From: Octopus vulgaris
Taxonomy: Eukaryota
Assembly: GCA_951406725.2 (NCBI GenBank)
Contig: OX597814.1
Coordinates: 133,238,001-133,302,000 of the forward strand
Direction of reading: 5' to 3'
Length of the DNA: 64,000 nt
A program made the position numbers and the translations under genes. Below the pieces are notes generated by a model. That model saw only the letters and a program-made list of their open reading frames with translations. It was not told where the DNA came from and ran no database searches. This document shows, piece by piece, positions 17,821 to 53,704 of the stretch; the first letter of the stretch is position 1; each line of letters opens with the position of its first letter.

Positions 17821-18029
17821 AATGTGACCGCGTGGGTACCGTTGGCGATTTTTTTCGTCCGTCTTCCCTTCTTTGGATCTTTCCTTTTCCTATGTTTCTG
17901 ACGAAGAGCTCCGCTCGAAACGTTAGACCCTCCTTCTTTCCTTCTTTCCTGAGCGTCCAATAATACTATACTTGTTCCACGTCCTCGCGTTGTTGTGCTT
18001 TCTCTTTGTGTTTTCATGTTTGGATTAAC
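17821..18029 (+). mobile_element. ~210-bp module in (TA)n, probable solo Penelope-like pseudo-LTR (family H1)
   Basis: Second copy inverted at 53495-53704 with the same boundaries; contains an HHR core. Confidence 0.75.
17894..17928 (+). ncRNA. Minimal type I hammerhead ribozyme motif
   Basis: gttt-CTGACGA-a-GAGC-tcc-GCTC-GAAA-C-GTT^agac: helix I gttt/agac, helix II GAGC/GCTC, self-complementary AACGTT in place of helix III. Confidence 0.75.
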
Positions 18030-18811
18030 AATATATATATATATATATATATATATATATATATATATATACATGCAGGTATGTGTGTGTTATCTACGTA
18101 ACGGTTAATAAGTATATACTTATGATGTCCATAACTGCAATAATATTTACTATCTCTTCCCGCTACCTACTCTTCTTGACTGACAGCTCTGCGACACGCA
18201 CACGCACACACAGACAAACAAACACACACACACACACTTACGAGCGCGTAGTTTAAACCTGTATTCTGGTTAGAAATTTCACTTGTTGATAGTACTGTGG
18301 ATTAAACAAGTCGTTGCTCACGTGTTTAAATGGTTGCGTGAAAACTTTAGGAATTACATAATGTAGTTTTTAATCTAGATTAATTTGTATTACGCTTAAG
18401 ACAAAAAACTCTTAAGCAATTGTAGCGACTCTTCAAAACAAATTCGTCTGTTTTTATTATCTTTTCACCCCACACATAAGGTTTCACTTTCGTTGGAGAC
18501 TTTGGAATACAATTTCAATTACCTAATACCAATGACTTTACTTCATCGGTACTTTCTGTGCATGAGTAATTGATTATTTCCCTGTCTACTCTGCGTGATT
18601 CTGTCCTTCTAACTAGTGTCATGCTTCACTTTTATGTACACGATCCTCTGTGAATTTATTGCAATCAATATTATCTAGTATATATAAATCACAGAATGCG
18701 TGCATGTATTGACTAACGAATACACTTCCACAATTCTCAACTGATTTTCACCAACCTTTACACACACATTACTTATGTCCCAAGGATAGTTATGCACTAT
18801 AATATTTTGCC

Positions 18812-19780
18812 CAGAGCTCCCGCATAAATGGTCAAACCGGGAAAAACTTTGGTTTACGCGGATTTTTCTCTAATTTGTTATATAAACATATTTTTTCTAT
18901 GTTACATCTTCCATACATTTTTAATCTATAATATCGTATATTAGCATTAAAGAAAAATTTTAGCGGTTTTCCCATTTTTTAAATTTATTATTTATTCATA
19001 AGTTGTAATTGTGTATTATTACTTGGTTAAAGATTATTATAAAAGTGAAAGGATTTTGTCTATTTATTTATTTTCACTGTCCACCTGCGACAGTGATTAA
19101 AGTGACTAGGAACACTGTACGCGACGAATATCCAATAGCAAACAACCTTAATATCCATAATTAAACTGCATTAGACTTTGGCAAGCTTACCTTTAACTGT
19201 TCTGAATTACTTGGAAGGTGATGTCTTCTTCTCTCTCTTCTGTTTGTTGACACCTTTGCTTAGCTATCAGTCCATTGTTTCAGTTTAAGGATGCATATTT
19301 ACACACCCATTATGATATTTCGCGAACGCGACATCTTTCACTGAGAACCGCTAAAGATCCAAAGCAGTATTCGTGAACTGAAGTCAAACTCTTCATGTCT
19401 TCATTTTTCGTTACCTAAAGTCAATTTCAGAGTGGTCATACACTGTGAGCACATAGCAAATACATTCCTTCAACTATACTTTTTCAAGTAGGTATTATAT
19501 TGCCATTTTTGAAAATACCAATAATACTTCTCTCCGATAAAATAACCCTCTTTGCTGTTGGATAAAATAAATTCGCAGAGGGGAAGTTTCAATGTCTTCA
19601 TTCAATTTCCATACACCATATATGTGACTGTTTCTGACAAGGGATTTCACTTCCATGTAAAACAACTACATTTTGTAGTTATTATCCGTAATCTACTCCC
19701 AAAACACCTCAGTAGCTCTATTTGCATAGCTTGCAAACTTATATGTTCCATGATAATTATAGTGCAATGATCTCCACAAT
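18812..19780 (-). mobile_element. Possible very old hAT-like relic
   Basis: Minus-strand remnants EIIAL..KF..EVFW..NY resemble a hAT dimerisation region; CAG-starting end at ~18812. Weak. Confidence 0.25.
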
Positions 19781-20244
19781 AACCAGCCTTCAGTTTGGTT
19801 TTCTGTTCCTAGGTTAATCGGAAACATAGATTGCCGTGCTACTCATAAAACTTCTCGATAGTTCAATTATTTGCTGAAAAAATACCACCAAAGCAAATTA
19901 AACCGTTCAAAGGACGTGTTCGTGTGCTAGTATATATATATTTTTACCATGATGTAAACTAAAAATGCATCAATAACATGCTGCCGTAACAAGTGTTGTT
20001 CATTTTGTAAACCACTTGTAAACTTCTTTTATACATTCACTACACTTGGAACAATCCCTGGGTTGGATCTGCAGTTTATACTGGGTTGGGTACCTACGTA
20101 TCTATGTATCTATGTTTGTGTGTGTGTGAATGTATGATTGATTGATTGATTCTAGTTTCAGCTCACGAGCTGTGGCCATGCTGGGGCACCGCCATGTATA
20201 TATATATATATGTGTGTGTATGTGTGTGTGTCTGTGTGGGTGTA

Positions 20245-20660
20245 AGTATATATATATATATATATATATATATATATATATATATATATATCACCTGCCT
20301 TCGTATATATATATATATATATATATATATATATATATATATATATATATATATATATATATATATATATATATATATATATATATAAATATATATATAT
20401 ATATAATATATATATATATATATATATAATTATATATATATATATATATATATTATGTTATATATATTATATATAATATTATTATATAAATATATATATA
20501 TATATATATATATATATATATATATATATATATATATATATATATATATATATATATATATATATATATATATATATATATATATATATATATATATATA
20601 TATATATATATATATATATATATATATATATATATATATATATATATATATATATATATG
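20245..20660. repeat. Very long (TA)n array
   Basis: Direct reading, ~400 bp with short interruptions. Confidence 0.95.
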
Positions 20661-50630: not shown

Positions 50631-51665
50631 ATGAGGATAGGTATAAAAGAATAAAAGCAAAGAATATATATAATGCAATAATATTATATCGTAATATATA
50701 TATTCTCCGATTTAAAGCGACATTTATATATAAACAAACTGACTGAAAAATGATGAGCTAACCTTAGCCAGAATCGAACACATATATCAACGCTTACACG
50801 ACTACGTGCACATTGATTGGGTCAATCGCTCATCCATCAATTTCAGCCAAAGTTTACATATATATACTTAAACTTTATCATACTACATACTATATTTATA
50901 AATAAACCAGAAGGCTTAGGAAGTTACGGAGAGAAAGCGATTATGGAAGTCTATTGGTACAAAAATAACTATAACAATATATCATAATATTGATATGTAT
51001 ATCTTCCGGATGTTTTCGTTAATAATAGTATATATACATATAATACGTCATTCTCTAAGAAATGCTACTAACAGAAGACATACATCGCAATCTCGGTATA
51101 TACTCAATTGAGCCTACTGTTTCTAGCTCTTTTAACTGTCCAGTGTCTTGTGCATTTCTACCTCCCAATTCAACTATTATATCACTGTCTCCGAGTTTTC
51201 TCTCCGTGAATGCAGATATTTGGAATTACTAACACATTTAAAGTTCGCATCCTTTCATAATTTAGTACCTTATTTTGGGTAACGAGAAACCAGAAACTAT
51301 TTTATTCCCTTTGGAACGTACTCCGACTAGTTCTTCAGCTTACTCAACTCAATATAATATTAGTTAAGCTTCTATGACTGTATTAGAAGATCTATATAAT
51401 ATACTTAATCTGTATTAGTAATTAATGTTGCAGAACATTTATTTTTTGATGAGCTTAGAAAACTCTTTCGCTGCCTTTGAAGTTGTAATTCGAATGCACT
51501 ATCAGTAATTATGCTGCTGATTTCTCAACGACATATGTATCAACATCATATGATAAAAAACTGAATGACGGCACCTTAATAGACAATGTTATTGCATCTA
51601 TGATGGAGCCATGGATACTACTGGCTCAGTGAAATAAACCGAATGTGTTGTTGAGATTCACAAAC

Positions 51666-53034
51666 GAATTATGTATAGCATTGTCTAAATATATTATTCG
51701 TTTCATATATATATATATATGTTTCTCCCATAAATTTCTTTGACGTCCTTCTGCGTCACATCTTTCATTGTTATTCATTGTATCGGTACGGACGCATACT
51801 TACCCAACTACAAGTGATCTACTTATTGTGTGACAGCTGGTTTACGCACTTTTATTCTTCTTTATATTCATCTCTCTATAGCTTTCTACCTCTAAATACA
51901 TTTCAAAGTTTCCCCTTGATATTCAACATTCTATTCTATTCTGCCTAATTTCTTTCATTGTTTGCTCTCATTTATCTTTCCATCATTGAATTCTTCTATC
52001 CAGCCTACCTTCTTTTAGCTATCTGTCTATCTACCTATCTCTCTATCTACCTATCTCTCTATCTACCTATCTCTCTATCTACCTATCTCACTATCTATCT
52101 TTTTATCTCTCTATACATTTATCTCTGTTTCTATCTTTCTGTTCGTCGCTCACATTTTTTCTACTACCTTCTCCGTCTTCACTATCCCTATAATATCTTT
52201 TCTCTCTCACACTTCCTCTATATTCTTTACAATCTCCTATAGATTTTCCTTCTCTCCCAATCAAAAGGCCTCACAAGGCCCTCCTCTTTCTGTTCTCGTG
52301 ATACTCGTTCTTTATTTAACTGACTGCTGAATTCGTCGAATGCTTCCTTCATACCTCTGGGCTTGTTTAATTTACTTAATTTTTCCTCATGCCCTAAAGG
52401 CACATTATCTTTTCTATTAGCTTAAGTCGCACAACTTATATTATAAACTTGTCGCAAAGTTCAGAGATATTCAGTATATACATATACACGTTTGTTTCGT
52501 TTTGTATTTCACCCGTTTTCCTCACAACACCATACGTTTCAGTTATTGGCTTTGTCTATAATTTTGTTTCTTTTTTTATGTTTCTCCCGCATATTTGTTT
52601 TTTCTTGAGTCTGCCTCAAATTTTGATACTGAGTAAGTTGTATTTTCCACGTTCTCTCTTGTTGTAAATATGGCAATAAATCAAGTTTTCTTTTTGTATA
52701 GTATTTCATATAATTATATCCGACTCCCTTGTAAAACTTTATGTCACTTTTCAACCTGAGTTACTTTTGATTTTATGAGAGAAATATAGTTAGTTACAGT
52801 AAGTGAAATGTAATTAGCTATAAAAAACTATAGAAGGGTAGGTATAACGAAAACTAAAAAGAAGGTAACAAGCTGTCGCACAATAGGCAGATCGTTGGTA
52901 TTCGGGAAAATATGAGTGCGTATCGATACAAGGAATATCAGTGAAAGATGTACAGAAGGATGTCAAAGAAATTTACGGGGAAAATAAATATATATGTAAC
53001 GAATTATATATTTAGACAATGCTATACAAAACTC
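51666..53034. mobile_element. Element bounded by ~240-bp diverged inverted repeats
   Basis: 51666-~51905 matches the reverse complement of ~52803-53034 (tgtatagcattgtctaaatata, taaatttctttgac.tccttctg, tattgtg.gacagct). Confidence 0.7.
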
Positions 53035-53494
53035 ATGCTCATTTTGAATATACCTATATCTTGTTCCACTGGGGTCAATGAGGACCAACTGTTCTGCTAA
53101 TCACACCTCTCAAAGCAGAATAGCTATTCTTTTGCATCCAAAATAAAATAGACCCTTTTTCATTAAGGATTTACCAGTTTACGATAGTTCTTCTCACTTA
53201 AGATTATCTCTCCTAATTCGGAGTTGGTCGCAGTTGACCACAGCTTATCGTTTCTTGATACGAAGATACTGTCGGTAAACCATGTATCTATTTCATGCGG
53301 TATTTAATATATCTTTAGTCATTTTTGCTACCTAAATTCTTTTAGCTTGTAATATATACATCCGGACATATATTCGCACACACGCGCACGCACACATGCA
53401 CATACACACATACATGTATGCACGCTCACACATACACACACACATATATATATATATATATATATGTGTGTGTGTGTGTATATATATATATAAA

Positions 53495-53704
53495 GTTAAT
53501 CCAAACATGAAAATACAAAGAGAAAACACAACAACGCGAGGACGTGGAACAAGTATAGTGTTATTGGACGCTCAGGAAAGGAAAGAAAGAAGGGGGATTT
53601 AACGTTTCGAGCGGAGCTCTTCGTCAGAAACACAGGAAAAGGAAAGATCCAAGGAAGGAAAAACGGAAGGAAAAAATCGCCAACGATACACACGCGGTCA
53701 CATT
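53495..53704 (-). mobile_element. Second copy of module H1 with HHR at 53597-53631
   Basis: Minus strand gttt-CTGACGA-a-GAGC-tcc-GCTC-GAAA-C-GTT^aaat; TA-repeat flanks. Confidence 0.78.

Follow-up and report, generated by a model that had tools for sequence, protein, structure and literature searches.

We analysed a 64,000-nt stretch of the Octopus vulgaris genome (contig OX597814.1, positions 133,238,001 to 133,302,000; hereafter the window), in which two copies of a dispersed module of about 210 bp carry a minimal hammerhead ribozyme motif. In our reading, to which we assign a probability of roughly 0.88, these modules are solo pseudo-long terminal repeats (pLTRs) of a Penelope-like element (PLE), a retrotransposon encoding a reverse transcriptase (RT) with a C-terminal GIY-YIG endonuclease (EN). 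They would have arisen by nicking of TA repeats and copying of the first ~210 bases of uncut element RNA, the hammerhead being a passenger in lone copies. The module is a pLTR flanking the open reading frame (ORF) of the element, its 3' end lies at the junction with the 5' untranslated region (UTR), insertions are biased towards TA runs, 5' ends pile up, and most copies span the predicted cut site. The module copies of the window and their immediate surroundings are as follows.

17821..18029, + strand: solo pLTR, copy A, CUGA-core subfamily (from sequence and pairwise alignment)
53495..53704, - strand: solo pLTR, copy B, same CUGA-core subfamily as copy A
17768..17821: (TA)27 run 5' of copy A
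18031..18071: (AT)20.5 run 3' of copy A
53705..53716: (AT)6 on the 5' side of copy B
53479..53494: TT + (TA)7 after copy B, the same as the TTTATATA opening the 5' UTR of the element
43433..43632 (about), + strand: third module, a solo pLTR of a sister PLE lineage, after (AT)20
43506 onwards, + strand: core CUGUUGA (A6U) of the third module, with a GUA site and a predicted cut at 43533/43534

Copies A and B lie in opposite orientation, 35.5 kb apart, and are 92.4% identical over 210 alignment columns without any difference in the 26-nt core, which confirms the two modules with identical cores reported in a preliminary description of this DNA. The pattern CTGANGA..GAAACGT occurs twice in the window, where 0.01 occurrences are expected by chance. 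The same description counted two copies, both inside (TA)n. Both are indeed present, but the homologous third module with its CUGUUGA core had been overlooked; the TA setting holds for copy A, whereas copy B has only (AT)6 before it and (TA)7 after it. Both copies are solo when checked for the tandem arrangement of retrozymes, and the 64-kb window contains no ORF of the parent PLE family.

The parent was reached through a copy elsewhere (L023), whose shared upstream sequence pointed to an ORF. We fetched 20 loci around a segment of this ORF, 14 of which cover at least 450 of its 626 aa. Among these 14, the module lies 3' of the ORF in 10 and 5' of it in 6, including 5 loci with modules on both sides, 4.7-6.2 kb apart. 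Direct pLTRs around a single ORF for RT and C-terminal GIY-YIG, as in EN-bearing (EN+) PLEs, are thus found in 5/20 loci, which supports the suggestion that the module is a solo PLE pLTR and supplies the copies attached to PLE ORFs that had been proposed as a check. The pLTR pairs of four full copies show 3-7 differences in 147-212 positions (2-3%). The 5' module continues as TTTATATACCGCAC and the 5' UTR (the boundary reads AAC followed by TTTATATA), while the 3' module is preceded by a long 3' UTR rich in (CAYA)n and has (TA)n at its end. Variable 5' truncation, a fixed 3' end and partial tandems, also expected of EN+ PLEs, were all observed.

The predicted protein carries DKG (PADKGG in P0001) and YIDD motifs, an RT-EN linker of the form CX4CxxC (CSRSRCNTC in P0001) and a CCHH-type GIY-YIG domain, LIYCIKCNLCRMLYIG, with two cysteines between GIY and YIG and two later histidines. 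According to PMC8557442, DKG, a CX2-5CxxC linker and CCHH GIY-YIG are features of Neptune and Nematis, whose linker rule the octopus sequence follows. These EN+ PLEs also share with it the hammerhead in the pLTR, a microsatellite bias, partial tandems and 5'-truncated copies; the octopus element differs in its 3' UTR, a (CAYA)n-rich tract of 1-3 kb, and in its extreme ratio of solo pLTRs to element bodies. A search for protein relatives returned 1029 of 8000 scored candidates passing E 1e-20, and most of the 120 relatives listed carry RVT_1, often with GIY-YIG Pfam marks.

Solo copies are extremely numerous in the assembly searched (2.8 Gb, 227 contigs). Hammerhead cores were counted as exact 28-mers, and the totals are thus lower bounds: 2931 CUGACGA and 7836 CCGACGA cores, that is, at least 10,767, with none for the control sequences. 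An exact 22-mer of the module 3' end occurs 8776 times, as compared with 52 exact pLTR-to-5' UTR junctions. Contig depth over the module is ~1000x that over the UTRs in all four public runs used out of 21 listed (contigs of uncertain kind).

The ends of these copies were studied in a sample of 90, the first among the 8776 3' ends, all located on one contig (C1) and chosen regardless of core. The 3' boundary is constant at TTGGATTAAC, and the next bases are TATA in 45 copies and TTTA in 31. A TA run is present no more than 14 nt from the 3' end in 83/90 copies, as compared with 5.4% of window positions, so the suggested bias towards (TA)n insertion is well supported. The 5' ends are variable but piled up, as 38/90 start in one 12-nt zone ~105 nt upstream of the cut. 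Put differently, 46 copies reach +100; 38 of them end within +100 to +111, where the truncation rate further down would predict 4.9% (p 2.5e-42), and 8 extend further. The pile-up includes subfamilies that differ in sequence at that point. An initiator-like motif there (TCAAA/TCAAC/TCAAT) fits the initiator (Inr) consensus only poorly and was not used as evidence. The predicted cut site is spanned by 76 copies, no copy ends between -5 and +14 of it, and 8/90 copies continue into the 3' UTR.

We propose that the endonuclease of the element nicks a (TA)n target, and that the nicked end pairs with the UAUAUA directly following the pLTR, thereby priming reverse transcription from within the RNA. 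Synthesis would run through the uncut hammerhead to the RNA 5' end, copying the first ~210 bases. The 5' pile-up would then mark this end, at a predicted promoter within the pLTR, which is where PMC2377424 and a review (PMC6765202) place the promoter and start site of Penelope. Occasional template jumps from the RNA 5' end may give pLTR-5'UTR-pLTR and ORF-fragment-pLTR chimeras; jumps to internal sites would explain the chimeras sharing a TCAA junction (L023, L038, L045, and L055). The hammerhead would act slowly, depend on a dimer or on protein, and have a role, if any, in tandem element RNA. The closest precedent is PAc, a Poseidon element of Anolis carolinensis (PMC11167929), for which an internal RT start, AT-rich nicking and a protein-assisted hammerhead dispensable for insertion are reported. 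In both elements, insertion ends are set by an internal RT start close to the pLTR junction, targets are AT-rich and the RNA template is uncut. They differ in that PAc starts 111-118 nt into the ORF and leaves a tail of 30-40 bp, whereas octopus copies end at a UAUAUA matching the target, in two end classes differing by 2 nt.

Several points weigh against this proposal. The RT start of PAc has no target homology, and annealing in the octopus element is our inference. The pile-up, a feature of genomic copy ends, may have a further source, as many junctions bear the mark of microhomology with TA/TG runs (ATGTG, TATG), which could contribute to it. That no copies end at the cut site is weak evidence by itself (none seen within 5 nt, against 3.4 expected). 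As for the parent, the Pfam matches to RVT_1 (E 0.0016) and GIY-YIG (E 0.025) both fall under the curated cut-offs, none of the 20 loci holds an unbroken full ORF (the longest stop-free stretch is 673 aa), and membership in the Neptune clade, although likely, was called from motifs.

The modules could also form an independent non-autonomous family, resembling a short interspersed nuclear element (SINE), that is transcribed from its own promoter in the pLTR and relies in trans on the PLE enzyme to move. The vast excess of solo over body-linked copies (8776 exact 3' ends against 52 exact junctions) would fit, as would a length peak near 210 nt that resembles a unit length, and a solo copy followed by host (TA)n carries the same priming sequence. 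Moreover, none of 16 further junction loci contains an RT/EN region, and 11 are short pLTR-5'UTR-pLTR forms, five of them with two cores. Nevertheless, every solo subfamily seen has ORF-linked counterparts, including that of the window copies (L049 and L052 for CUGA; L050, L061 and L063 for CCGA types), the short tandems join at differing points, and some copies, as noted, extend into the 3' UTR. We therefore regard this as rather unlikely as a full account, although a SINE-like life of solo copies may be partly true alongside copying from the PLE RNA. Five of the short forms (L190, L196, L197, L198, and L200) have two cores ~340-670 nt apart on one strand and are natural candidates for cis dimers.

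The preliminary description offered a retrozyme-like family as the other option. In such a family, the hammerhead would cut tandem units to unit-length RNA that is then circularised and reinserted. Non-LTR retrozymes (PMC7229834) are likewise short, non-coding and equipped with a type I hammerhead; the unit size of our module is within their range of 150-450 bp, and a 2026 preprint (bioRxiv 10.64898/2026.07.22.740005) derives them from pLTRs. Three modules also lie head to tail at the 3' end of a full element (L065:6605-7468), but with ~120 bp of TA between units, as separate insertions would have. In retrozymes, every unit of a head-to-tail array carries a ribozyme, and circular RNA is produced, while the octopus copies are scattered monomers whose 5' ends vary: only 2/90 sampled copies have another piece on the same strand within 1.3 kb, in both cases apparently an internal duplication, and the other 88 have none. 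As tandem arrangement is rare, as copies begin elsewhere than at the cut site, which most of them span, and as their ribozyme is of the minimal PLE type instead of the canonical retrozyme type, a retrozyme origin is unsupported and very improbable. Copying from uncut PLE RNA remains our preferred explanation of the solo pLTRs.

The hammerhead itself is organised as follows.

17894..17928, + strand: minimal type I hammerhead motif of copy A (from sequence and pairing table)
17894-17897, + strand: copy A, helix I 5' strand
17898-17904, + strand: copy A, core C3-A9
17905, + strand: copy A, extra A
17906-17916, + strand: copy A, helix II
17917-17921, + strand: copy A, GAAAC
17922-17923, + strand: copy A, GU
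17924, + strand: copy A, U17
17924/17925, + strand: copy A, predicted cut
17925-17928, + strand: copy A, helix I 3' strand
53597..53631, - strand: minimal hammerhead motif of copy B, with C3 at 53627 and a predicted cut at 53601/53600

Both copies have C3-G8, G5, A9, GAAA, U16.1 and H17, helices I and II, a palindromic helix III without loop and an extra nucleotide after A9, that is, all features of the minimal hammerhead ribozyme (min-HHR), so the motif was correctly recognised from the outset. Helix I pairs in spite of differing 3' strands, as also stated then (GUUU with AGAC in copy A and with AAAU in copy B). The loopless helix III is not the novelty that had been implied, since it defines the min-HHRs published for metazoan PLE pLTRs (PMC4209133, Cervera and de la Pena 2014), for which the extra base after A9 and solo dispersal are published as well. 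Features common to those and to the octopus module are the missing loop 3, the palindromic 15.2-16.2, the extra nucleotide between 9 and 10.1, G10.1-C11.1, a short helix I, presence in both pLTRs and thousands of mostly solo copies per genome. Helix II has 4 bp and a 3-nt loop in octopus, as compared with 7-8 bp in Schistosoma min-HHR families. An Rfam scan of both copies gave no hammerhead family match, which is unsurprising for a motif lacking the loop of helix III and makes the scan uninformative here. A PDB sequence search gave no match, and a metagenome scan for relatives with flanks yielded 170 pattern matches, none of which was confirmed.

According to the preliminary description, the module would be able to cut any transcript reading through it. 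Folding with nearest-neighbour energies, which omit tertiary contacts, predicts instead an inactive, rod-like monomer whose core is buried by pairing between GACG and CGUU. The predicted active dimer reaches only -7.5 kcal/mol, against -23.8 for two rod monomers, in copy A, and -4.1 against -15.4 in copy B, so the active double hammerhead would be less stable by 16 and 11 kcal/mol, respectively. In PMC4209133, single min-HHRs showed no cleavage and dimers were cleaved weakly, and PMC11167929 reports that cleavage by a PLE hammerhead required the element protein and that no reads ended at its site. The minimal motif of a lone copy is thus likely unable to cut RNA, and the claim is unsupported for lone copies without a partner. 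Furthermore, no single transcript can hold copies A and B in sense, given their opposite strands and the distance between them. Lone copies could still act as functional cis-cleavage elements on host read-through transcripts by pairing with a second RNA in trans: both retain all helices around a canonical CUGACGA core, 12 intermolecular pairs can be drawn for a trans dimer, and the more than 10,000 copies could supply partners. However, in addition to the unfavourable energies and the published cleavage results, hammerhead copies decay like their flanks, the two window copies face opposite ways, and no host gene was identified around them. We consider such cutting of host RNA highly unlikely.

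The decay of inserted copies also bears on a proposed refutation, namely that core and helices would be no more conserved than the flanks. This is technically what we observed (40/1796 non-CpG changes in the hammerhead and 236/8094 in the flanks, from 73 of the 90 copies), but the comparison is inappropriate because inserted copies decay neutrally. The signal of constraint on the hammerhead sequence sits between subfamilies and families, where the covariation asked for was found: helix I pairs at 23/28 positions over seven families, as compared with 51% with swapped strands (permutation p 0.0016), and the five mispairs come from two single diverged copies. In the sister PLE, the end of helix I swaps G-C for C-G in 35/40 copies.

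Core variants follow the same divisions. U4C occurs in 73% of exact cores (7836/10,767) and is a subfamily trait. CpG decay as the origin of the CUGA core was rejected, as U4 tracks a subfamily marker (30 U/6 C versus 1 U/33 C; Fisher p 1e-12). Position 4, itself part of the alignment, needs one change on a 49-row tree, as compared with 14.7 with shuffled labels. This unrooted tree used 47 of the 90 sampled copies, shorter or core-less copies being left out, and its shortest end branches are among those of the CCGA clades. Position 17 is occupied by U, C or A and seldom by G: it is other than U in 2576/10,767 cores, and a hand count of the first 100 such cores listed gave 86 C, 11 A and 3 G. 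The sister PLE (L206-L226; G000 genome-wide), a younger lineage with 66% aa identity to the parent protein, has A, U and G at position 17 in 31, 8 and 1 of 40 copies, and all four bases at N7. Variation at N7 and H17 is of the sort that hammerhead rules permit. It gave 20,207 first-look candidates, the 144 scored being 98-100% identical, and several copies have open frames of more than 1000 aa. It has at least 16,123 exact hammerhead cores, A6U being present in 96 of the first 100 listed (hand count). Its 5' pile-up looks similar (~13/40 by eye), and ~10/40 copies run into the 3' UTR. Another abundant min-HHR family (L156-L185), with helix II GGCUG/CAGCC, helix I GACAC/GUGUU and a GUU site, often adjoins (TAA)n and has at least 5108 pattern matches.

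The octopus family is thus mostly U4C and its sister A6U, while the excerpt of PMC4209133 gives only a U3-A8 variant. According to PMC3088659, U4C considerably lowers in vitro activity and yet supports a viroid, and a natural A6C hammerhead cleaves slowly. Our literature searches, whose coverage lacked most subscription papers, found only this paper and one on twister for U4C/A6U hammerheads, and no account of the octopus family among cephalopod PLE hammerheads; the U4C and A6U variants may already be in print.

Other repeats are found in the window. Two copies of an ORF for an RT of the long interspersed nuclear element (LINE) type (7494-9986 and 22249-23892, both + strand) are 97% identical over 1.66 kb and match RVT_1 at E 6e-31 and 2e-31. 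A Mariner-type transposase fragment (62149-62901, + strand; PF01359, E 2e-23) lies in a 1.3-kb repeat present twice (61853-63153 and 12699-13979, 93% identical). Finally, a dispersed repeat of ~217 bp, a putative SINE, occurs at 27655-28086 (a tandem pair at 27655), 15843-16070, 59688-59937, 37444-37608 and 39296-39460.

The module represents one more PLE family with a known minimal hammerhead, of a kind already published, and its main interest lies in the non-canonical cores and the sharp 5' boundary. For repeat annotation, it accounts for more than 10,000 copies, and the other families contribute no fewer than 16,123 and 5,108 cores. PMC8557442 still describes the role of PLE hammerheads as unclear. 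Two of our results bear on it: most insertions derive from copying that ran past the cut site, and non-canonical cores, which constitute natural variants, occur in abundant subfamilies that keep the other hammerhead constraints. One possibility, which we advance tentatively and hold to be less likely true than false, is that the hammerhead is kept but damped, the most prolific masters carrying core changes expected to slow cleavage (U4C, A6U) while N7 is left free, G is avoided at H17 and helix I shows covariation. If true, slow cleavage would leave the 5' pLTR of the RNA intact as a template for strong-stop-like complementary DNAs of 210 nt, which would allow the template jumps that rebuild pLTR-flanked elements, and the subfamilies (U4/C4, A6/U6, GUU/GUC/GUA) would constitute a natural allelic series for the function of PLE hammerheads.

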